Below are positions 2,615 to 57,268 of a DNA stretch of 64,000 nt, in pieces. The stretch lies in NCBI RefSeq assembly GCF_057098645.1, contig NZ_CM169472.1. One strand, written 5' to 3'. The first letter of the stretch is position 1; every line of letters begins with the position of its first letter. The translations under genes and the position numbers were made by a program. The notes beneath the pieces are model-generated. The model did not search any database. It was given only the letters and a program-made list of their open reading frames with translations, and was not told where the DNA came from.

Positions 2615-2867
2615 CGGGCGATCCTCACTAAACCGGGCCGTTTAGCCAACGTTTAAGCTTTTTGAGAAGCACAATGTAATGGCGTCGCCATATTGCTGCA
2701 ATTCTAGTGTCAAAAAAATGCGATGTTGTTAGGAATTAGTTTATAAACAGACTTTTTTGATCGCGGTCGCTTCCCGTGTAACAGGGGGAAAACCGTCCAG
2801 GAGCAGGGAAAAGGGCAGGAGAGAGCCGCGTCAGCCGGGTAACAGCTAAAACGCGGCGTTTCGCGGT

Positions 2868-3302
2868 TCAGGAAATGAAGTTCAGCCCCTGCTTTAACAC
2901 CAGATCGCAGGCTTTGGTTTTCACCTTTTCTGCCAGCGGAGTCGTTCCGATGTTATCCAGATTGAGTTGCTGACCATCTTTGGTTTTCAGCAAACCCTGA
3001 ATACCGTCCAGATAGTTGGTGTCTTCTTTTTGCTCTTCACTGTTCAGGCCCAGCTTTTCCAGCACCTGATTCTTGATGTTTTCGGCATCGGTTACCGACG
3101 CCAGCTTTTGCTTCGCGCAGTATTGCAGAATGCCTGCGGCATTGTTCATGTTATCTGCGCTTAAGGCCTGGTTTCCGCTGCTAAGCAAGTTAGTTAATGA
3201 CGCGAGCGACCAACCGCCTTCCTGTGTCGTGCTGTTTTGGTTGCCAAGTTCGCTGGCGGCAATGGCACAGCACAGAAGATGTTTAACAGTTTTCATCATC
3301 AT
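2868..3302 (-). CDS. yjjA: YjjA, secreted DUF2501-family protein
   Basis: 144-aa ORF with an N-terminal signal peptide (MMMKTVKHLLCCAIAASE...); sits between opgB and dnaC. Confidence 0.8.
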   Translation of the reverse strand: MMMKTVKHLLCCAIAASELGNQNSTTQEGGWSLASLTNLLSSGNQALSADNMNNAAGILQYCAKQKLASVTDAENIKNQVLEKLGLNSEEQKEDTNYLDGIQGLLKTKDGQQLNLDNIGTTPLAEKVKTKACDLVLKQGLNFIS

Positions 3303-3347
3303 TACTCAAGGTGGAATTGTGTCGCAGTATACCGCCAGAAACGGGGA

Positions 3348-4085
3348 TTAATACTCTTTACCTGTTACACGGCTACGGTAGCTATCCCAGTTGAAGATCA
3401 CCCACAAACTGTTACCCAGGCGCATACGGTCCATCACGCGTTCGCCCAGCAACTTGGTCATCTCTTCCATATTACTATTGGTCAGCATCCCGGTTGGGCG
3501 TTTGGAAGAAGAGCGGCGATCGACGATCTGGTTGATGATCACTTTTTCGTATTTCGATTCGGTCTGCACGCCGATCTCATCGATCACCAGCAGATCAACG
3601 TTGCTCAGATCGTTAAGCAGTTGTTCTTCGCTGGTACCGCTATTCCTGAAGGTATCTTTCATCGCCGACATAATATCGGCCACGGTGATGATCAATACGG
3701 ATTTACCGCGTAGCAGCAGCTCGTTGCAGATTGCCGCCGCCAGATGGTTTTTGCCGGTTCCTGGCTTACCAGAAAAGATAAAGCTGGCGATGTTGCCGTC
3801 AAACTCTTCGACATACTGGCGCGCTTTGCTTAACGCATTCATCTGCCCTTCACACTCAACGCGATAGTTCTCAAAGGAGCAGTTCTGATGCAGTGGACGA
3901 ATACCGGAGCGGTTAAAGGTGCGCTGCATTTTCATCGCCCGATTTTCACGTTCGAGAGCGGCAGAGCGGATCGCCCCTTGTTCTTTTTGCCAGGCCAGTA
4001 GTTCTTCACCCGTTTTGAATGCGGGTTTGATATGGGCAGGCATCATTTTTTGCAGGCGTTGCATCAGGTCGCCAACGTTTTTCAT
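3348..4085 (-). CDS. dnaC: DNA replication protein DnaC (helicase loader)
   Basis: 245-aa ORF with Walker A GKPGTGKNHLAAAI; immediately downstream of dnaT. Confidence 0.92.
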   Translation of the reverse strand: MKNVGDLMQRLQKMMPAHIKPAFKTGEELLAWQKEQGAIRSAALERENRAMKMQRTFNRSGIRPLHQNCSFENYRVECEGQMNALSKARQYVEEFDGNIASFIFSGKPGTGKNHLAAAICNELLLRGKSVLIITVADIMSAMKDTFRNSGTSEEQLLNDLSNVDLLVIDEIGVQTESKYEKVIINQIVDRRSSSKRPTGMLTNSNMEEMTKLLGERVMDRMRLGNSLWVIFNWDSYRSRVTGKEY

Positions 4086-4087
4086 CG

Positions 4088-4627
4088 TTACCCTCTGAAT
4101 CCTGGTGGAATTTGGCTGTCAGGTTCGCTGACCGTATTCACATCTCGTTTCGGCAGTCCGCCGTTGCTGGCACGACCGATTTGCAGGCTGCGCGCCAGTT
4201 TTTGTTGCCACTGCACATGGTGAAAGACTTTACCTTCCGCCTGCCAGTAGGCAATGAATGAGGCCAGTTCTTCGGTGGTCACCGGCTCTCTTAGCGCCAC
4301 GCCCCATAGCGCCGCCAGGCGGATAAAATCGGCATCGGGTTGCCAGTCCGGATACATGGCGAATTTCCCCATGGGTACAGCAACGGGAGCGGCTTGCGGT
4401 TCCTGATAGAGTTGATCGTCCAGATCGACATCGCTTCCCGGACGCGCCAGCTTTTCTTCCAGCGCCAGCAGTTCAGCCAGGCGTGCAGGCGTGACGGCAT
4501 AAAACGCCGGGGCATTGTTAGCAAATACGGCAACCACACCGCCTTCAGCTTTTGCCAGAACGGTTTGGTGATCGTGTACCAGGGCGTCAATACCAACGAC
4601 GTCCGGGGTCAAAACTCTGGAAGACAT
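4088..4627 (-). CDS. dnaT: Primosomal protein DnaT
   Basis: Starts [16 protein letters not shown]... and ends ...[13 protein letters not shown]; the ORF-track start at 4639 looks like an upstream extension. Confidence 0.9.
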
Positions 4628-7313: not shown

Positions 7314-7948
7314 AAAAATGCGTCATGAGTAGTATCGGTATTGAGAGTTTATTCAGAAAGTTTGCGGGTAGCCCTTATAAGCTCCATACCTATACCAGTC
7401 AGGAGTCATTTCAGGATGCCATGTCGCGGATCTCGTTTGCGGCGGTCATTTTTTCTTTTTCTGCCATGAGAAGTGAGCGCAGAGAGGGATTATCTTGCCT
7501 GACTGAACTGGCGATTAAGTTTCCGCGTACCCGGCGTTTAGTTATTGCGGATGATGATATTGAAGCTCGGCTGATTGGTTCATTGTCGCCATCACCGCTG
7601 GACGGTGTATTAAGTAAAGCGTCAACGCTGGAGATTTTTCATCAGGAACTCTTTTTGTCATTAAATGGTGTACGTCAGGCGACCGACCGACTGAACAATC
7701 AGTGGTACATTAACCAAAGCCGGACGCTAAGCCCGACGGAGAGAGAAATATTGCGCTTTATGTCGCGTGGCTACTCAATGACACAAATTGCCGAGCAGCT
7801 TAAACGTAATATCAAAACGATCCGCGCGCATAAATTTAATGTGATGTCGAAACTGGGCGTCAGTTCTGATGCAGGGTTGTTGGAGGCCGCAGATATTCTG
7901 TTATGTATGCGGCATTGCGAAGCAAGTAATGTGTTGCATCCCTATTAA
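7271..7948 (+). CDS. bglJ: LuxR-type transcriptional activator BglJ
   Basis: 225-aa ORF overlapping the yjjQ 3' end, with a C-terminal LuxR HTH ([25 protein letters not shown]...). Confidence 0.88.
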
Positions 7949-7985: not shown

Positions 7986-8774
7986 TCATTTCAGCGTACA
8001 ATCGCCACATTGCTGCACATCCGGTAAGCGATAACGCTGGCAGCAAGTGCGGCGCACCAGCAGGCCGTCGCGCAGTACCACGGTACGCCAGAGTGGATTA
8101 TCTTCACCGGTAGTAAGCGTTTTCTCAAAAAAGAGGGCATGGCGCAGCGATTCAACCGTCGCCTCGCCGAGCAGTTGCTTCATCTCAGTAAGATACCAGT
8201 TGATCAAATAACCGGTATTACTCCAGATAAGTTTGCCGTTAATCTCTCCCGTTGCTTCTAGTGCCAGCACAACCGGAACCAGCGCCTGGCTGATTAACGT
8301 TTCCATTCGATGCTGCGGCGAATGTGGTGTTACGTTTTTATCTTCACACACATCGACCCAGAAACAGGCGACGCGTCCGGTTTCGTGAAACTCAGCATGG
8401 AAATGTTCCGGCGACACATCTAATGCTTTTTCCTGCGTCAGTAGCGCCAGCATTAATGGTGGTACCATCAGGCCGATATACCACTGCGCCCACAGTGAGA
8501 TCAGCGGTTTGTTCTCGCGGATCATCGTTGGTTGGTTGCGATAGATATGATCGGAATAGACCGCCAGTAGAGAACTTAGAGCATTCGGTGATGACCATTG
8601 CGCCAGCGTCATGGCGTTAAGCGGAGCGGGTTCATCCAGGCGGATAAACTCCAGCAAATGTTCACGATGTTCGGCGATCATCGCCCGTACGGCTTGTGCA
8701 AGCCCAGCATCCTGCGGCTGGAGATGTGTTCGCCAGATGACATCTTCATAGAGCGGTGCGGAACGATAGGCCAT
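7986..8774 (-). CDS. fhuF: Ferric-siderophore reductase FhuF (2Fe-2S)
   Basis: 262-aa ORF ending with the Cys cluster ...RRTCCQRYRLPDVQQCGDCTLK. Confidence 0.88.
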   Translation of the reverse strand: MAYRSAPLYEDVIWRTHLQPQDAGLAQAVRAMIAEHREHLLEFIRLDEPAPLNAMTLAQWSSPNALSSLLAVYSDHIYRNQPTMIRENKPLISLWAQWYIGLMVPPLMLALLTQEKALDVSPEHFHAEFHETGRVACFWVDVCEDKNVTPHSPQHRMETLISQALVPVVLALEATGEINGKLIWSNTGYLINWYLTEMKQLLGEATVESLRHALFFEKTLTTGEDNPLWRTVVLRDGLLVRRTCCQRYRLPDVQQCGDCTLK

Positions 8775-12557: not shown

Positions 12558-12622
12558 ATGACGTTGTCTCCTTATTTGCAAGAGGTGGCGAAGCGCCGCA
12601 CTTTTGCCATTATTTCTCACCC
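12558..12622 (+). pseudogene. prfC: Native 5' end of prfC ([22 protein letters not shown]...) cut off by prophage integration
   Basis: atgacgttgtctccttatttgcaagaggtggcgaagcgccgcacttttgccattatttctcaccc encodes the canonical PrfC N-terminus, then reading diverges into phage DNA at 12623. Confidence 0.8.
12609..12622. other. attL core (attatttctcaccc), identical 14-bp copy at attR
   Basis: Exact 14-bp identity with 55730..55743; chromosomal sequence on the left, phage sequence on the right. Confidence 0.7.
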
Positions 12623-12852: not shown

Positions 12853-14091
12853 ATGGCGCTGTCTGATGCGTGGTTGCGTTCAGTCGTTGGAAAGGAACGT
12901 GATAAGGTTTTGGTTAAATCCGATCGTGATGGTCTGTCTGTCAGAGTATCACCGAAAGGTCGCGTAGTGTTCCAATATCGTTATCAATGGGCAGGGAAAG
13001 GTGAGCGCCTTGATATCGGAACTTACCCGGCAACTGGATTAAAAGAGGCCAGAGAAGAAGTTATCCGTCTCCGTGGTGAACTCGAGTCAAACCGCAATCC
13101 ACGATTAGTCAAGCAGGCTGAAAAACGAAAAGCTACTGAAGCTATGACGGTAGAGTCTGTGATCCGTGCCTGGTATGAAGCATATTGTGTAAAAAATAAA
13201 AAAGGTTCTGAACAGATACTCCGCTCGTTTGAGCTGCACCTGTTCTCTAAAATCGGGAATATCCCTCACGATGCAGCTACATTGCATGATTGGTTAGAAG
13301 TCCTGGAGCCTCTTAGCACTAAGACTCCAGCAATAGCAGACCGATTGCTAATTAACGCAAAGCAGGCCCATGTCTGGGCGTATAAGAGAAAGCTCATTGA
13401 AACTCGCCCGCTGTCGGATATCACGGGTAAAGATATGGATATCCGTAAAGGTCAGAAGAAACGGTTTCTGACACATGATGAAATTAAAATCCTTTATGCT
13501 GCGATCGATGGTTCTCGAATGGTTCCCAAATACCGGGCCTTCATTAAACTATTGCTGCATTTCGGCTGTCGTAGTTCAGAGCTGATTACTGCCAGGGTGG
13601 ATGATTTTGATTTCATTAATAAGGTATGGACTGTACCGCCAGAACGACATAAGACAGGTGATATAACAGGCGAACCGCTAAAGCGCCCCATTATTGAACC
13701 GGTTGAAGAGCTTATAAAATACGTTATCTCTATGAACAACGGTTCCGATATGCTTTTTACCAAGGAAGGAAGCAAGGAGCCAGTTGGTCGGACATCATTG
13801 CAGTCGCTGCCTTACAATTTAATGCAGTACGCATGGCGGCGTTTGGGGTATCAATTTCCTCATTGGTCTCTTCATGATTTGAGACGAACAGCACGAACAA
13901 ACTTTTCTGATCTTACTGCGCCTCATATTGCTGAAATAATGCTCGGTCATAAACTGCCAGGGGTATGGCAAGTTTATGATAAGAGCGATTATCTAGAAGA
14001 ACAGCGTAAAGCCTATCAGGCATGGTGGGATAGGGTTGATTCGATTCTTACTTACACTAATTTAGGTTCCAACAGACAGCCTATTGAATAA
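12853..14091 (+). CDS. int: Phage tyrosine integrase (P4-type, N-terminal arm-binding DUF4102-like domain)
   Basis: 412 aa; catalytic signature HDLRRTARTN ... LGHK ... VYDKSDY; adjacent to attL. Confidence 0.9.
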   Translation: MALSDAWLRSVVGKERDKVLVKSDRDGLSVRVSPKGRVVFQYRYQWAGKGERLDIGTYPATGLKEAREEVIRLRGELESNRNPRLVKQAEKRKATEAMTVESVIRAWYEAYCVKNKKGSEQILRSFELHLFSKIGNIPHDAATLHDWLEVLEPLSTKTPAIADRLLINAKQAHVWAYKRKLIETRPLSDITGKDMDIRKGQKKRFLTHDEIKILYAAIDGSRMVPKYRAFIKLLLHFGCRSSELITARVDDFDFINKVWTVPPERHKTGDITGEPLKRPIIEPVEELIKYVISMNNGSDMLFTKEGSKEPVGRTSLQSLPYNLMQYAWRRLGYQFPHWSLHDLRRTARTNFSDLTAPHIAEIMLGHKLPGVWQVYDKSDYLEEQRKAYQAWWDRVDSILTYTNLGSNRQPIE

Positions 14092-14203
14092 TGAATAGAC
14101 ATACAGAGTAAGAAAATAGTAATGATTCTTGGATTATAATTAACTGGTTGCTGATATTTTGATTTGCCGATTTATGAAGAGACGGTCATTATACTTATAA
14201 AAA

Positions 14204-14237
14204 CACCACTCCTTATCCTTACAGAAATAAGGAGTGG
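14204..14237. terminator. Bidirectional hairpin terminator between the convergent int and deaminase genes
   Basis: Perfect 10-bp inverted repeat ccactcctta / taaggagtgg with T/A-rich flanks. Confidence 0.6.
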
Positions 14238-14243
14238 AAACAG

Positions 14244-15851
14244 TTATGGCTGAGACTCTGGTTTAGCAATCTCGTTTATAAATTTCTTAGCTACAACAGT
14301 CTCATACTTTCTATAATCATCAAGATATTGAACATCTATATGATTTTCGTAGCGAGCATTAAATTTATTTGCAGCCCCTGTTTTATCATCTTTACGTTCA
14401 TCCGTTGGTCTGAAAAATTTATGGTAGCGGCGGGGTGATACCCCCTCAAAATCACAAAATATTACTTTGGAAGATTCTTCGTTCTTTGTTATTGCATCAT
14501 TATGCAGATCAAGAGCAAGACTTTTATCAAATGGCTCTATATATACTACTTTTTTTATTCCAGCTGCGACAATATGCCTTGCACAGTTGTGGCAGGGATA
14601 GGTTGTCGTAAAAAGAATTTTATCTTTAGTATCGCCGTTTTGTTTTCTAGCCATTGATGTAATGACGTCCATTTCAGCATGAATTGATCTGGAGTACTCC
14701 ATTACACTTGATATTTTGCTGTCTTTGTAAATGCCTTCTGCAATATTATCTAATTTGTTTAGAAGTCGTGTTATATTAATATCGGCAACAGTTTGTCCTG
14801 CGGAAATACCTAATACAGTTCTTACTTCGGTTGATAATATGCTTTTTATACGGTCTTTAATTTTTAGCTTGTTTGCATCATTATAACACTTACCACTTTT
14901 GTGAACGCATCGATGATCGTTATCAAAATCATCACTGCTATACAACCCGCCACCAGCTTTAGGTACGTCGTTCTTACCCACGGCAAGCAAATTCCCTTCA
15001 TCATCAAACAGTGCAGCCCCTACTTGACGTGATAAACAAGCTGATTGTAATGATGTTGAAAAGGCAGCATACATACCTTTCTCGTTAAAAGTTGGTGTTA
15101 AACCATTTTTGCCATGAATAAGACCGAAAAACCGATCAATCTTCTTCTTTAATTCACTTTTTTGGCTGAAGTTATTTTTAATAAAAAAATCTGAATCAAG
15201 AATGGTTTCCCCGGTTCTTTGTCCATACGGATCAGAGGATTTATTATCAATATTGATAATTAAATGAAGGTCGTTCTTTGTCGATTCGTCATCAATGAGA
15301 TTCTGAATTCGGTAATCTAAATCGCGCAAAACTCCTAACAAATAGAAATTATGCTGATATATAACTCTGAATAACTCTATTTCTTCCGGCCTTTTGAATT
15401 GATCAATGATGAAGACAGTACCTTTATATTCATCATTATTATAATCATTATTATAATCAATATTATTTTTCTCTGCTGCGATTGCTGCAATAGCAGCTTC
15501 TGCAAGCAACTCATTTTTTTTGTAATGTTTACGAAGTTTATTGGCAATATCCTGGAGTTTTAAATGTCTATTAGCTTGTGTGCTTTCGGATACCTTCAGT
15601 GCTGCTGGCTCAAAATATAATGGGTTTTCCATAAGCGCACTTATGCGGATGTGTACAACATTATACCCCCATTCTTTGGATATCTCTTCGATAATTTTGT
15701 TTATCGTTCTCATGCCACATCCAACATATCCACACAATCCAAGATAAATATCTTTTGATTGTCGTGAATTCACAATCTCAAGTGATGATGCCGATGTTGA
15801 GCCTTTTTTTTCATTCAGCTTTTGTGGAGTTTTTTTTGCTGCTTCAGCCAT
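14244..15851 (-). CDS. AvcD-like / dCTP-deaminase-family defense protein: N-terminal degenerate P-loop NTPase (kinase-like) fused to a C-terminal dCMP/cytidine-deaminase (CDA-fold) domain
   Basis: 535 aa; degenerate Walker A LGLCGYVGCGMRT (aa 38-49); deaminase zinc motifs HAEMDVI (aa 391) and PCHNCARH (aa 419-426); AT-rich cargo between int and xis. Confidence 0.7.
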   Translation of the reverse strand: MAEAAKKTPQKLNEKKGSTSASSLEIVNSRQSKDIYLGLCGYVGCGMRTINKIIEEISKEWGYNVVHIRISALMENPLYFEPAALKVSESTQANRHLKLQDIANKLRKHYKKNELLAEAAIAAIAAEKNNIDYNNDYNNDEYKGTVFIIDQFKRPEEIELFRVIYQHNFYLLGVLRDLDYRIQNLIDDESTKNDLHLIINIDNKSSDPYGQRTGETILDSDFFIKNNFSQKSELKKKIDRFFGLIHGKNGLTPTFNEKGMYAAFSTSLQSACLSRQVGAALFDDEGNLLAVGKNDVPKAGGGLYSSDDFDNDHRCVHKSGKCYNDANKLKIKDRIKSILSTEVRTVLGISAGQTVADINITRLLNKLDNIAEGIYKDSKISSVMEYSRSIHAEMDVITSMARKQNGDTKDKILFTTTYPCHNCARHIVAAGIKKVVYIEPFDKSLALDLHNDAITKNEESSKVIFCDFEGVSPRRYHKFFRPTDERKDDKTGAANKFNARYENHIDVQYLDDYRKYETVVAKKFINEIAKPESQP

Positions 15852-15861
15852 TGCTAATTAC

Positions 15862-16047
15862 CTAGTCGAAAACTATATCAGTATTTATTATTTCAAAAAA
15901 TGCATCAAGAATTTCTTTATTTTTCTTTTTACTTTCAAATGAAATGACATTATCTTGATTAAATGTTGTTAATTCAATGCAGATAGAATCAACCTGATCA
16001 TTGGCGGCGATGCTCGATTCTATTTCATTAAATGCTATTACATTCAT
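15862..16047 (-). CDS. Small upstream ORF (61 aa) co-oriented with the deaminase gene; possibly an AvcI-like antitoxin locus (peptide or sRNA)
   Basis: Stops 10 nt before the deaminase start codon; very AT-rich; no recognisable domain; weak RBS. Confidence 0.35.
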   Translation of the reverse strand: MNVIAFNEIESSIAANDQVDSICIELTTFNQDNVISFESKKKNKEILDAFFEIINTDIVFD

Positions 16048-16391
16048 TTATCTTATCCAAACATAATAAAAAACCATATGGCCTTTAGTGTACAACAAAA
16101 CCATACTCTTTCCCCTCATTTTAGAGGGGGAAGTGTGGTCCACATCATGTTTTTTCCCACCCATGAAAATGTTCACCTAGGCTGGTGATGCATTTTATGT
16201 ACATCAACTCTTTGAGTTGAATCATTATTTTAGTATTTTTTCTATCATTGTGTAAATGTCTTCGTTTCAATACATCATGCTTGGGGAGCGGTCCCCGTTT
16301 CCTGATAATTAATGCTTGTGGATAGCAACGTCCGTGCCTGTATCGCTCAGACAGACGCTTACCGTGCCATAGACGTGTCTGTTCACATACG

Positions 16392-16586
16392 TCATTCAAT
16401 AACTCCTGCAAACCTGTAAATCTTGCGTGAAGCCCATTTATTTGGGCATGATTTAATATCAGGATCTGGAAAATCAGGCCTGTACTTCTGGCCAGTTCTC
16501 CGGTTTACGCTGTTCCAGCGAAGAACTGTCGATACTGAAACGCCACAGAAGTCGGCGACTTGTTTAGTTGTCATTAAGTTGTTCAT
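16392..16586 (-). CDS. xis: Excisionase / AlpA-family HTH DNA-binding protein
   Basis: 64 aa; MTTKQVADFCGVSVSTVLRW HTH, then the proline-rich FPDP segment typical of AlpA/Xis. Confidence 0.65.
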   Translation of the reverse strand: MNNLMTTKQVADFCGVSVSTVLRWNSVNRRTGQKYRPDFPDPDIKSCPNKWASRKIYRFAGVIE

Positions 16587-17206
16587 TACTTCACCTCCTG
16601 CGGCGGTTCCGGTAGCGGCATCCAGTGGGTTACTTTCGATGCCGGTTCTTCTCCATTGTCAGTAACTGCCCACCATTTGTTTCTCGAACAATCATAATAC
16701 CCTTCGAAGGTATCGCACTCAGTCCAGCCGTAAGACTTACCCCGACACCAAACATACTGTTTATCGTTCGGCATTCGCTCACTACAGCTTATCCAACCAT
16801 CCGGAGTTACCGGAGAGTTGCCCGACAGCTTGTTCAACTTGTAAGTCTGGCTTACAGGTTTGGCACCATGAAGCATGGTGGCGCGGCAGGCGTTCCAGCC
16901 TTCATCAAAACCGACTATGCCATTATTTAAAGACGGACGAGCATCTGGCACCACCAGTACTGGCTTGGCTATATATAGCGGCTGAACATACCAGCCCTTT
17001 GATAACCAACTGTCAGCAATGTTTTTGCTCCTGGTTATTGCCGGAATACCTAAGCCATTGTCTGAATGCAGCCATGCCACCGGCTCCTCTTCCAGCGATG
17101 CCAGAGCAATTTCATAAGCACGGCGCTCAATATCGTCTCGAACCTCTAGGCTGCTGATTCGTTCTTTGATTTCTTTAATCAGTTCTTTATTGGTAAATGT
17201 GGTCAT
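16586..17206 (-). CDS. Phage DUF551-domain protein
   Basis: 206 aa with a Trp/Cys-rich C-terminus ending ...KVTHWMPLPEPPQEVK, typical of DUF551. Confidence 0.6.
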   Translation of the reverse strand: MTTFTNKELIKEIKERISSLEVRDDIERRAYEIALASLEEEPVAWLHSDNGLGIPAITRSKNIADSWLSKGWYVQPLYIAKPVLVVPDARPSLNNGIVGFDEGWNACRATMLHGAKPVSQTYKLNKLSGNSPVTPDGWISCSERMPNDKQYVWCRGKSYGWTECDTFEGYYDCSRNKWWAVTDNGEEPASKVTHWMPLPEPPQEVK

Positions 17207-17568
17207 TATGCTCCAGCCTCCGGCGCTTTGGGTATTACTGCCCAGTGAGTGATATTGAAGTTTTCAAGGTCCCCGACCTGAAATGTCCACTGCCATTCTC
17301 CGGTTTCTTTTTGTCCCCAGGTGTACCAGAGAGAACGCCAGCCAATCAGCCAGCCTTCTCCGTTAGCATCAAATAACAGAACACTTTCATTTGCTGGTGG
17401 CAGTTCAGCTGACACTGGTATTATTTTGTTTTCCAGTGCCGCACATTTAGCTTCAAGCGCGTCGAATTTACGTACCAGGTACTCAGCATTTGTTTCGTTC
17501 ACTTTCAGATCTCGCGGTACACATTTCCCGCGAAGAAACCCTTCCATTTCGAAAACATTCATGCGCAT
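17206..17568 (-). CDS. Phage early protein, hypothetical (YfdS-like position)
   Basis: 120-aa ORF translationally coupled to its neighbours in the early-left operon. Confidence 0.5.
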   Translation of the reverse strand: MRMNVFEMEGFLRGKCVPRDLKVNETNAEYLVRKFDALEAKCAALENKIIPVSAELPPANESVLLFDANGEGWLIGWRSLWYTWGQKETGEWQWTFQVGDLENFNITHWAVIPKAPEAGA

Positions 17569-18095
17569 TTGCGTAACTCCGATAATTCGTTAAAGCGTTC
17601 CATAAACATCCCGTAGGCATGGCCTGGAGCCAGTGGAATCACGTTGATCATCTCTGTTGCCGGGATACCTTCCAGCACAGGCCAGAAAGAGCCATCATCA
17701 AGCCCGAGATCGCGGCGTTCGGTTGCCAGCATGATGAGATCGGCATATTTCACGGGTGTACTCATAACCGGGGGTAACCCGTATTTCTCACGGATTACGG
17801 CGTCTATTTTTTCTTCCATCCGTTTATAGTCAGGAAGAAGGCGTTTCAGTGGAGCCGGGATGTCCTGGCAATACGCTTCTGTTGCATCATGCATTAACGC
17901 TTCAAAAGCAAATTCCTGCGGTACCAGTTTGCTGCAAAGCACCGCATGTTGGGCGACGCTGTAGAAGTGTGAAAGATGACCGGCAAAGCGACAGATATTT
18001 GAAAGGGAAACTGCGATATCGTTAATCACGATGTCGTCTTTATTTATCCTGTCATAATAAAAATGCTTCCCGGAAAAAGTTTTAATAAATGACAT
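17559..18095 (-). CDS. HD-domain phosphohydrolase (YfdR-like 5'-deoxynucleotidase)
   Basis: Starts MSFIKTFSGKHFYY...; HD motif ...VAQHAVLCS ... MHDATEAY; the ORF-track start at 18122 is an extension. Confidence 0.7.
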   Translation of the reverse strand: MSFIKTFSGKHFYYDRINKDDIVINDIAVSLSNICRFAGHLSHFYSVAQHAVLCSKLVPQEFAFEALMHDATEAYCQDIPAPLKRLLPDYKRMEEKIDAVIREKYGLPPVMSTPVKYADLIMLATERRDLGLDDGSFWPVLEGIPATEMINVIPLAPGHAYGMFMERFNELSELRKCA

Positions 18096-55681: not shown

Positions 55682-57268
55682 ATGACAAGCCTTTTGGCCG
55701 CAGAGGTAGCGAAAAGAAGAACCTTTGCAATTATTTCTCACCCGGACGCCGGTAAGACTACCATCACCGAGAAGGTGCTGCTGTTCGGACAGGCCATTCA
55801 GACTGCCGGTACAGTAAAAGGCCGTGGTTCCAACCAGCACGCTAAGTCGGACTGGATGGAGATGGAAAAGCAGCGTGGGATCTCCATTACTACGTCTGTG
55901 ATGCAGTTTCCGTATCACGATTGCCTGGTTAACCTGCTCGACACCCCGGGGCACGAAGACTTCTCGGAAGATACCTACCGTACCCTGACGGCGGTGGACT
56001 GCTGCCTGATGGTTATCGACGCCGCAAAAGGTGTTGAAGATCGTACCCGTAAGCTGATGGAAGTTACCCGTCTGCGCGACACGCCGATCCTCACCTTTAT
56101 GAACAAACTTGACCGTGATATCCGCGACCCGATGGAATTGCTCGATGAAGTTGAGAACGAGCTGAAAATTGGCTGCGCACCGATCACCTGGCCAATTGGC
56201 TGCGGCAAGCTGTTTAAAGGCGTTTACCACCTTTATAAAGATGAAACCTATCTCTATCAGAGCGGTAAAGGGCACACCATTCAGGAAGTCCGCATTGTTA
56301 AAGGGCTGAATAACCCGGATCTCGATGCTGCGGTTGGTGAAGATCTGGCACAGCAGCTGCGTGACGAACTGGAACTGGTTAAAGGCGCGTCTAACGAGTT
56401 CGACAAAGAGCTGTTCCTTGCGGGCGAAATCACTCCGGTATTCTTCGGTACTGCGCTGGGTAACTTCGGCGTTGATCATATGCTGGATGGCCTGGTGGAG
56501 TGGGCGCCTGCGCCGATGCCGCGTCAGACCGATACCCGTACCGTAGAAGCGAGCGAAGATAAATTTACCGGCTTCGTATTTAAAATTCAGGCCAACATGG
56601 ACCCGAAACACCGCGACCGCGTGGCGTTTATGCGTGTGGTGTCCGGTAAATATGAAAAAGGCATGAAACTGCGCCAGGTGCGCACTGCGAAAGATGTGGT
56701 GATCTCCGACGCGCTGACCTTTATGGCGGGTGACCGTTCGCACGTTGAAGAAGCGTATCCGGGCGATATCCTCGGCCTGCACAACCACGGCACCATTCAG
56801 ATCGGCGACACCTTTACCCAGGGTGAGATGATGAAGTTCACCGGTATTCCGAACTTCGCACCAGAACTGTTCCGTCGTATCCGCCTGAAAGATCCGCTGA
56901 AGCAAAAACAGCTGCTCAAAGGGCTGGTACAGCTTTCCGAAGAGGGCGCGGTGCAGGTGTTCCGTCCAATCTCCAACAACGATCTGATCGTTGGTGCAGT
57001 TGGTGTGCTGCAGTTTGATGTGGTGGTAGCGCGCCTGAAGAGCGAATACAACGTTGAAGCAGTGTATGAGTCAGTCAACGTTGCCACTGCCCGCTGGGTA
57101 GAATGTGCAGACGCGAAGAAATTCGAAGAGTTCAAGCGTAAGAACGAAAGCCAACTGGCGCTTGATGGCGGCGATAACCTCGCTTACATCGCTACCAGCA
57201 TGGTCAACCTGCGCCTGGCACAGGAACGTTATCCGGACGTTCAGTTCCACCAGACCCGCGAGCATTAA
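55682..57268 (+). CDS. prfC: Peptide chain release factor 3 with a phage-supplied replacement N-terminus
   Basis: Translational GTPase with G1 motif [12 protein letters not shown]; N-terminus [16 protein letters not shown]... replaces native [17 protein letters not shown]... Confidence 0.9.
55730..55743. other. attR core (attatttctcaccc)
   Basis: Exact copy of 12609..12622; phage sequence on the left, native prfC on the right. Confidence 0.7.

Follow-up and report, generated by a model that had tools for sequence, protein, structure and literature searches.

Introduction

AvcID systems are toxin-antitoxin (TA) modules in which a deaminase, AvcD, is neutralised by the product of a short locus directly upstream, AvcI. 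In Vibrio cholerae the antitoxin, DifV/AvcI, was located in a small open reading frame (ORF) that directly precedes the toxin gene, shares its strand and is co-transcribed with it. In V. parahaemolyticus, Proteus mirabilis and enterotoxigenic Escherichia coli (ETEC) H10407, too, a small annotated ORF stands before the homologous toxin gene and neutralises the cognate toxin (bioRxiv 10.1101/2021.03.31.437871). AvcI from ETEC and P. mirabilis inhibits its own AvcD only; the ETEC test used the whole ORF region, and RNA and peptide were not separated there. The four small ORFs are described in the same preprint as lacking amino-acid or nucleotide similarity (bioRxiv 10.1101/2021.03.31.437871), and AvcI is still termed non-coding in later papers and a 2025 review (e.g. 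PMC10511110). Here we analyse an avcID locus in a 64,000-nucleotide stretch of an E. coli chromosome (contig NZ_CM169472.1, assembly GCF_057098645.1; hereafter the window), in which a 61-codon ORF precedes a gene for a 535-residue AvcD. The locus is 100% identical to that of NZ_CP062901.1 (O152:H23).

The closest tested relative is the AvcID system of ETEC H10407, in which AvcD depletes deoxycytidine nucleotides and the ORF region upstream of it acts as the neutralising element (bioRxiv 10.1101/2021.03.31.437871), and which protects against T3 and SEC phages (PMC10511110; bioRxiv 10.1101/2021.03.31.437871). As in the window, its AvcD, 61% identical over the full length, is abutted by a 61-codon ORF on the same strand. 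The ETEC system is carried on a 5.8-kb mobilisable plasmid, whereas the window cassette lies in a prophage, and the ETEC P-loop has a lysine against R48 in the window protein. The AvcID (DcdV/DifV) systems of V. cholerae VSP-I and of V. parahaemolyticus share the two-domain toxin and the operon layout of the window and are activated after transcription shutoff. Their minimal AvcI elements, of 174 nt and ~171 nt, correspond to a small ORF of 56-57 codons, and the Vibrio-type AvcD proteins sampled here are ~40% identical to that of the window. Inhibition by RNA alone has been demonstrated for V. cholerae only. The AvcD changes in AvcI-insensitive mutants of V. cholerae include E123K, A126T, K201R, K511E and Q514R.

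A second line of work concerns the dCTP deaminases of E. coli AW1.7 and U09 (Tal et al. 2022), which come from defence islands. Cloned with their native promoters they defend, both domains being required, and dCTP is depleted when a phage infects (bioRxiv 10.1101/2021.04.26.441389). These proteins also join an N-terminal kinase-like domain to a C-terminal zinc deaminase, and their family underlies the NCBIfam and PADLOC models. The AW1.7 protein comprises 576 residues, compared with 535 in the window, and the text consulted treats a single-gene system and discusses neither an upstream ORF nor an RNA.

Results

An ORF under protein-coding constraint at the AvcI position

The 535-residue and 61-residue minus-strand ORFs and the 10-nt gap between them, from which the initial annotation had proposed an AvcI locus upstream of the deaminase, are present in the ORF table. 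In ETEC H10407, plasmid p58 (NC_017723.1) carries a small ORF at 2618..2803, likewise 186 nt and 61 codons long, which ends 12 nt before avcD (2816-4414). As the two ORFs agree in size, strand and spacing (10 versus 12 nt) and their peptides can be aligned, the assignment to the AvcI position is correct. The ETEC and window peptides share the element NV[IV]xF and a C-terminal ...IL..[DE]I[IV][FL]D-stop, and are 22-32% identical by alignment. The small ORF has a match in PHROGs (phrog_9966, listed without function) and none among the Pfam, NCBIfam and PADLOC families. A peptide motif of the AvcI locus was not found reported in the literature searched.

We collected 80 AvcD loci from species-representative genomes and from plasmid, phage, IMG/VR and metagenome sources. 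The conserved-ORF set comprised the window ORF (15862-16047) and loci L003-L010, L014-L062, L095, L096 and L117. Forty-four loci encode an AvcD with 38% or greater identity to the window protein, and 91% of these have a same-strand ORF of at least 50 codons that ends no more than 160 nt from avcD; the opposite strand reached 11% and dinucleotide-shuffled sequence 18%. Across AvcD homologues the upstream ORF spans 52-80 codons, and in many cases a Shine-Dalgarno-like motif stands before its ATG.

Thirty-two distinct ORFs end in a tryptophan codon followed by the stop, one of them (L094) probably by chance. Their peptides follow a common pattern, NV[VI]x[FIL] ... K.A...[ILV][LI]..A.KL.W-stop, without nucleotide similarity. 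Over the 15 codons preceding the terminal tryptophan, the mean information content is ~0.50 bits at the first codon position, ~0.84 at the second and ~0.21 at the third. The tryptophan itself is invariant (32/32), alanine is encoded by all four GCN codons, and leucine by both TTR and CTN. This free wobble, together with the varied alanine and leucine codons, points to selection on the amino-acid sequence and not on the RNA sequence. Family-wide, pairwise dN/dS lies between 0.11 and 0.35, and the excess of synonymous over non-synonymous change is significant in eight of ten pairs (Fisher p 6e-6 to 2e-3).

The clade to which the window belongs, made up of E. coli, Budvicia, Morganella, an IMG/VR prophage, Dickeya and ETEC, keeps the NV[IV]xF element and has a different peptide ending, ...IL..[DE]I[IV][FL]D-stop, within the consensus ...NVISFE...L[DE]AF.EI.N.DI[IV]FD-stop. 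The four closest lineages differ by no insertion or deletion over the 61 codons; small-ORF dN/dS within the clade is 0.18-0.40, significantly so in five of six pairs (Fisher p 1.6e-4 to 9e-3). An hhalign comparison of the window-clade peptide with the tryptophan-ending family gave 56% probability (P 1.1e-4), and the two groups are likely, though not proven, to be homologous on this profile evidence. In most lineages the peptide has a C-terminal amphipathic helix ending in the tryptophan, and in the window clade the helix ends in F/L-D. Conserved residues of the window peptide include N33/V34/F37, A49/F50 and I58/F60/D61.

The coding pattern extends to ORFs that have been used experimentally. 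The P. mirabilis locus, checked through a same-species homologue, and that of V. diabolicus encode peptides ending in ...TLDW-stop and ...KIKW-stop, respectively. For V. parahaemolyticus, the published primers for the avcI Northern probe begin at ATGGTTACAAATTTAAATG (ATG, MVTNLN) and end at CAGAAAATTCGTTGGTAA (QKIRW followed by a TAA stop). Because these primers run from the ATG to the tryptophan and stop, the 'avcI' used in those experiments is exactly such an ORF, and it ends as most of the family does, in contrast to the F/L-D-stop of the window clade. The minimal V. parahaemolyticus avcI of ~171 nt equals the length of the near-identical ORF of P. damselae. A profile of the tryptophan-ending family retrieved nine proteins from 5.8 billion, all named 'hypothetical protein' and lacking a Pfam match, the query being too short and divergent for a census. 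Judged by its pattern of substitution, the AvcI locus in the sampled AvcD lineages is evolving as a protein-coding gene.

RNA-level evidence and the nature of the inhibitor

The coding evidence partly conflicts with published Vibrio genetics. In V. cholerae, inhibition of AvcD persists when the construct has no ribosome-binding site (RBS) or has a stop in place of the start codon (bioRxiv 10.1101/2021.03.31.437871). Rifampicin, but not spectinomycin, leads to degradation of avcI RNA and activation of AvcD, with RNA loss tracking activation, and a complex of AvcI RNA and AvcD has been reported in vitro (PMC10511110).

Predicted folding stability was not raised in 36 upstream ORF regions (mean z -0.24, compared with -0.33 in control segments of avcD; z-scores from dinucleotide shuffles, Wilcoxon p 0.67). 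An Rfam scan of 13900-16700 at E<=1 returned three sub-threshold chance matches and no AvcI family. RNAalifold on the window, Budvicia and Morganella sequences, which are too few and too similar to be informative, gave a covariation term of +2.0 kcal/mol with double changes in 3 of 96 pairs. Repeat searches found no ToxI-like tandem repeats in 15852-16260, and the V. cholerae authors likewise note no repeats in DifV (bioRxiv 10.1101/2021.03.31.437871). A long-range inverted repeat of 14 nt (15894-15907 / 16186-16199) was dismissed as a chance match, since neither Budvicia nor Morganella conserves it. In each of 13 comparisons the small ORF had diverged less at synonymous sites than avcD beside it (sign test p 2.4e-4, with pairs that are not fully independent), which suggests an additional nucleotide-level constraint on the ORF. 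Furthermore, one IMG/VR prophage, L110 (IMGVR_UViG_2778261428_000003), carries a GAA-to-TAA change at codon 45 that removes the conserved C-terminal helix, beside an intact avcD identical to the L109 and L111 alleles; this is a single case in which a sequencing error is possible.

Like AvcID, ToxIN and other type III TA systems have a labile antitoxin transcript upstream of the toxin in the same operon and are triggered when phages shut off transcription. The ToxIN toxin is an RNase, whereas AvcD is a deaminase, and the AvcI region has neither tandem repeats nor predicted excess structure but holds an ORF under protein-level selection.

We read these observations as follows: the transcript would act as the inhibitor, as in the Vibrio systems, and the ORF would also be translated into a peptide with an accessory role under amino-acid-level selection. 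More broadly, we tentatively propose, at somewhat less than an even chance, that in much of the AvcD family the locus called the non-coding small RNA (sRNA) AvcI is a conserved gene for a small protein. In that event AvcID would combine RNA and peptide in a dual-function system, or would have three components, and the peptide would help to restrain, assemble or trigger the deaminase.

The best-surviving alternative is that the 61-residue peptide is the main inhibitor of AvcD in the window clade, as in a type II system, or that peptide and RNA are obligate partners within a three-component complex. The purifying selection on the ORF, both within the window clade (dN/dS 0.18-0.40, no indels) and family-wide (0.11-0.35, eight of ten pairs), the three-base periodicity with its invariant tryptophan, the frequency of long upstream ORFs (91% against 11-18% in controls), the Shine-Dalgarno-like motifs and the ordinary RNA stability all fit a functional peptide. 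The cognate-only inhibition by ETEC and P. mirabilis AvcI fits it as well, translation not having been excluded in those tests. An inhibitory peptide is difficult to reconcile, however, with the V. cholerae constructs that inhibit without an RBS or start codon, with activation by rifampicin and not spectinomycin, with the RNA-AvcD complex in vitro and with the nonsense codon of L110 beside an intact avcD. We therefore consider this alternative unlikely, though far from negligible, and an antitoxin that is peptide only is unlikely too.

A purely non-coding sRNA, as in a classical type III TA system with an incidental ORF whose peptide is non-functional or not made, is improbable. This is the published model, and both the tolerated L110 nonsense variant and the reduced synonymous divergence relative to avcD (13/13) accord with it. 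An incidental ORF would not be expected to stay open for 52-80 codons in 91% of diverged loci, to conserve information with a three-base period and free wobble positions, to keep pN (non-synonymous change) well below pS (synonymous change) or to share a peptide motif among sequences without nucleotide similarity. Moreover, neither an Rfam family, nor excess folding stability, nor ToxI-like repeats speak for such an RNA. A functionless ORF is accordingly unlikely, and the combination of an inhibitory transcript with an accessory peptide is retained.

AvcD family membership, motifs and predicted structure

The initial annotation had described the larger protein as an NTPase-like domain fused to a deaminase and had proposed comparison with AvcD and the dCTP-deaminase defence proteins. 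The product matches the NCBIfam equivalog NF041025, 'anti-phage dCTP deaminase', with 464.7 bits over residues 35-487, above the curated cutoff of 400. It also matches the PADLOC dCTPase model PDLC02373 (1.9e-164) and phrog_9198 of PHROGs (1099.6 bits). The identical RefSeq protein, WP_088129574.1, is named 'anti-phage dCTP deaminase' by the Prokaryotic Genome Annotation Pipeline (PGAP). Together with the full-length identity to ETEC AvcD, these matches support the proposed AvcID, or dCTP-deaminase nucleotide-depletion, reading.

The two-domain architecture is borne out by an AlphaFold model, in which a nucleoside monophosphate (NMP) kinase-like N-domain precedes a dCMP-deaminase C-domain, and by a fold search that agrees with it. 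The C-domain matches the dCMP deaminases 1vq2, 2w4l, 4p9c and 7fh4, and no AvcD-like full-length structure was found in the PDB copy searched. Model confidence (pLDDT) falls below 50 at residues 136-139, in the N-domain linker that contains a DYNN repeat. The Pfam model PF00383 (dCMP_cyt_deam_1, 102 positions) matches at 6.5e-14 and is stretched over residues 256-438 because of an insert in the deaminase domain; the alignment to T4 dCMP deaminase is likewise interrupted between residues 300 and 386. This insert bears C315 and C322, both invariant in a 100-sequence family alignment.

The motifs named in the initial annotation lie at the residues given there. The zinc motifs are H391-A-E393 and P419-C420-H-N-C423, and the zinc and catalytic residues are invariant in the 100-sequence alignment. 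The P-loop region, GLCGYVGCGMRT at residues 38-49, reads G38-L-C40-G41-Y-V-G44-C-G46-M-R48-T49. The canonical Walker-A lysine is missing, with methionine at position 47 and, where most homologues have lysine, arginine at position 48. The GCGMRT state is common to the window, Budvicia and Morganella proteins and is thus clade-wide. Published inactive controls are S52K in V. cholerae, said to lie in Walker A (bioRxiv 10.1101/2021.03.31.437871), and S47K+E376K in V. parahaemolyticus, the S-to-K change being in or near the P-loop motif. By analogy with these controls, the data suggest that lysine is apparently not tolerated at that position. Relative to its Budvicia and Morganella orthologues, whose synonymous sites differ by 40-47%, avcD has a dN/dS of ~0.09 and, on this measure, is under strong purifying selection. 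On its profile matches and predicted fold, the 535-residue protein is a bona fide AvcD-family member with intact zinc and catalytic ligands.

Distribution and allele variation

The AvcD family comprises at least 7,925 proteins at E<=1e-30, with homologues on small plasmids, integrative and conjugative elements (ICEs) and conjugative plasmids. Identity to the window protein is 89% in Budvicia, 87% in Morganella, 80% in an IMG/VR prophage, 66% in Dickeya and 61% in ETEC. No close homologue was found among the sequenced phages of INPHARED (the best is 40% identical), and 12 IMG/VR viral contigs carry a homologue, always near the contig end. Among 5426 complete E. coli genomes, 48 carry the avcID cassette at a nucleotide identity of 95% or more, and ten further genomes have more distant homologues on plasmids, ICEs and chromosomes. 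Most copies examined encode 531 residues, the difference from the 535-residue allele being explained by the DYNN tandem repeat.

Some copies have decayed. A run of eight A residues at 15830-15837, in avcD codons 5-8, is reduced to seven in three strains (L103, L104, L105), which shifts the reading frame. A second A8 run lies a few codons further into avcD, so that slippage-prone inactivation is possible. The strains with decayed avcD are 08-00022, N96 and OkiPb01676; IS421 lies within the 3' part of avcD in N96 and OkiPb01676, and IS1A has entered the leader of 08-00022 and of OkiPb01676. All three retain an intact small ORF, and a broken toxin beside it is consistent with a toxin-antitoxin pair. 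The truncated avcD remainder in these copies is still labelled 'anti-phage dCTP deaminase' by PGAP.

Such copies, the non-canonical P-loop and the rare 12-nt duplication allele raise the possibility that the cassette in the window strain is itself decayed and inactive. We regard this as highly improbable, since both ORFs are intact and all invariant family residues are present, the duplication falls in a disordered linker of variable length, and the P-loop state is conserved across a clade evolving at dN/dS ~0.09.

Cassette limits, prophage context and cargo slot

The coordinates of the cassette and its surroundings are collected in Table 1.

Table 1. Positions of the avcID cassette and of neighbouring prophage features in the window.
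Feature	Position	Strand	Description
avcD	14244..15851	-	Anti-phage dCTP/dCMP deaminase, 535 aa; toxin/effector; NF041025, PADLOC, phrog_9198, RefSeq name
Small ORF (AvcI-equivalent)	15862..16047	-	61 codons; phrog_9966, 1.9e-43; antitoxin locus with protein-coding constraint
Spacer	15852..15861	-	10 nt; small-ORF TAG stop shares bases with an AGG Shine-Dalgarno-like element of avcD (sequence read directly)
N-domain	15111..15788	-	~aa 22-247; P-loop NMP-kinase-like; variant P-loop G41-YVGCGMRT-49
C-domain	14412..15089	-	~aa 255-480; zinc deaminase of the cytidine deaminase (CDA) fold; H391/E393, C420/C423; helical insert with C315/C322
12-nt tandem repeat	15432..15466	-	2.9 copies; encodes the DYNN repeat (DYNNDYNN) in the N-domain linker
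Leader	16048..16220	-	Upstream of the small ORF
Sigma-70-like promoter	16227..16256	-	TTTACA-18-TAAAAT, 10/12 matches; ~170 nt 5' of the small ORF
Intrinsic-terminator-like hairpin	14206..14237	-	13-bp stem followed by a T run; begins 7 nt past the avcD stop
int	12853..14091	+	Prophage tyrosine integrase; phrog_1, 2.8e-75; left boundary of the cargo slot
xis	16392..16586	-	Excisionase, 64 aa; phrog_1553, 7.7e-36; right boundary of the cargo slot
yfdR	17559..18095		HD-domain 5'-deoxynucleotidase; phrog_318 match; PGAP-annotated
attL core	12609..12622	+	ATTATTTCTCACCC; within the displaced 5' end of host prfC
attR core	55730..55743	+	ATTATTTCTCACCC; prophage provides a substitute prfC 5' end

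The two genes are bracketed by a single promoter-like site 5' of the small ORF and a single terminator-like hairpin 3' of avcD, which is likely the operon end. No terminator-like element of comparable strength was found between the small ORF and avcD. The promoter-like site is conserved in the Budvicia cassette (TTTGCA...TAGAAT) but not in that of Morganella. Similarity to these two cassettes starts at ~16190-16260, and the flanks beyond are unrelated. From these homology limits, the mobile unit consists of promoter/leader, small ORF, avcD and terminator. Over the 3' 100 nt of the leader (16048-16149), identity to the Budvicia and Morganella cassettes is 80-85%. This segment is conserved about as well as the small ORF and well above the synonymous-site identity of avcD, and it may be a 5' untranslated region element, part of the AvcI RNA or an operator. 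A small hairpin, CCCCCTC-TAAAAT-GAGGGG, lies in the leader at 16130-16112.

The GC fraction across 14000-16200 is 0.33-0.36, compared with 0.43-0.51 in the flanking phage genes and 0.51-0.57 in host genes, which bears out the AT-richness remarked on in the initial annotation. Annotation of the region is inconsistent between records. In the identical RefSeq record (L001), neither the 61-codon ORF (7763-7948) nor the excisionase (~8293-8487) is annotated, and other strains have a 'hypothetical protein' at the small ORF and, at xis, a pseudogene labelled as a partial 'DNA-binding protein'.

The prophage, inserted into the 5' end of prfC, spans ~12623-55743 (43 kb), and each of its ends is marked by the 14-bp core ATTATTTCTCACCC. 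Its insertion (12559-12622, 55683-55743) displaces the native first 21 codons of prfC and gives the remaining prfC a different N-terminus. Of 5426 E. coli genomes, 700 have the integrase family and only 48 the avcID cassette, and homology among integrase-bearing prophages usually stops at the end of int. In other prophages (L099, L100, L101, L102), the slot after int, equivalent to window 14092-16390, holds a CHAT-domain protein, a 377-residue hypothetical protein, a dGTPase-family protein (in O157:H7 NE122) or an 868-residue HNH endonuclease. These varied genes mark the slot as an exchangeable cargo site, often with defence-like genes, in which avcID is one alternative. The cargo interpretation of the initial annotation is thus supported. 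Its placement of the cassette between int and xis also stands by the PHROGs matches, with a nuance to the accompanying remark that the two genes are normally adjacent: in this prophage family the slot is usually filled with cargo, and int and xis are convergent here.

The dGTPase-family cargo is of particular relevance, as defensive dGTPases (Tal et al. 2022) resemble AvcD in acting by nucleotide depletion. They are unrelated HD-domain enzymes with another substrate, and no upstream small ORF is noted for them. The YfdR 5'-deoxynucleotidase is encoded in the prophage as first annotated, but the implied link with AvcD is not supported. A functional pairing of the two was rejected, yfdR-yfdQ-yfdP being backbone genes that also occur in related prophages with other cargo (e.g. 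L100).

The presence of YfdR and the resemblance of the C-domain to T4 and cyanophage dCMP deaminases could also suggest a metabolic enzyme that serves dTTP synthesis when the prophage itself replicates. The dCMP deaminases of T4-type phages, humans and cyanophages and the bifunctional dCMP/dCTP deaminase of PBCV-1 do share the CDA fold, the HAE/PCxxC zinc site and deoxycytidine substrates with AvcD, but they have neither a kinase-like domain nor an antitoxin, are allosterically regulated by dCTP/dTTP and serve metabolism, not defence. A metabolic role is barely credible: the defence equivalog matches the full length including the kinase-like N-domain, T-even dCMP deaminases cover only 34% of the AvcD query at 28-29% identity, and avcD lies in a variable cargo slot outside the replication module, is AT-rich and horizontally mobile among Escherichia, Budvicia and Morganella, and has relatives on small plasmids and ICEs.

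Discussion

The locus is very probably an AvcID-type anti-phage dCTP deaminase cassette that depletes nucleotides and, as a moron, occupies the int-proximal cargo slot in a lambdoid prophage integrated in prfC. By analogy with the systems studied by Hsueh et al. and Tal et al., AvcD would be kept inactive post-translationally in the uninfected cell by an abundant, labile product of the upstream locus. When a phage halts host transcription, this product would decay, and the freed AvcD would deaminate dCTP and dCMP to dUTP and dUMP. The resulting starvation of phage DNA replication for deoxycytidine nucleotides would yield fewer and defective virions.

Several points weigh against this account. 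Function is known from homologues alone, the closest tested being 61% identical, and the role of the transcript as inhibitor is borrowed from relatives in the group with tryptophan-ending ORFs and not from the window clade. The window allele has an extra four-residue repeat in a disordered linker and is matched at 99% or greater identity by three of the 48 genomes. In addition, its P-loop lacks the canonical lysine (M47, R48), though this state is conserved clade-wide, and the promoter and terminator are consensus matches only.

As a defence system, the avcID locus of the window is a known one that standard annotation recognises, and as such it adds little. Its setting illustrates how prfC prophages exchange defence cargo in the slot next to int, nucleotide-depletion enzymes of two different kinds among it. 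The upstream locus is of wider consequence. AvcID is cited as a type III system, and yet its "RNA" is an ORF that, on comparative grounds, is under amino-acid-level purifying selection and carries a family-wide motif. This coding signature includes the ORFs used experimentally from V. parahaemolyticus, P. mirabilis (through the same-species homologue) and ETEC. How AvcD is held in its off-state and how infection is sensed thereby become a question of RNA versus peptide, and the answer could reclassify AvcID as a dual-function RNA toxin-antitoxin module.

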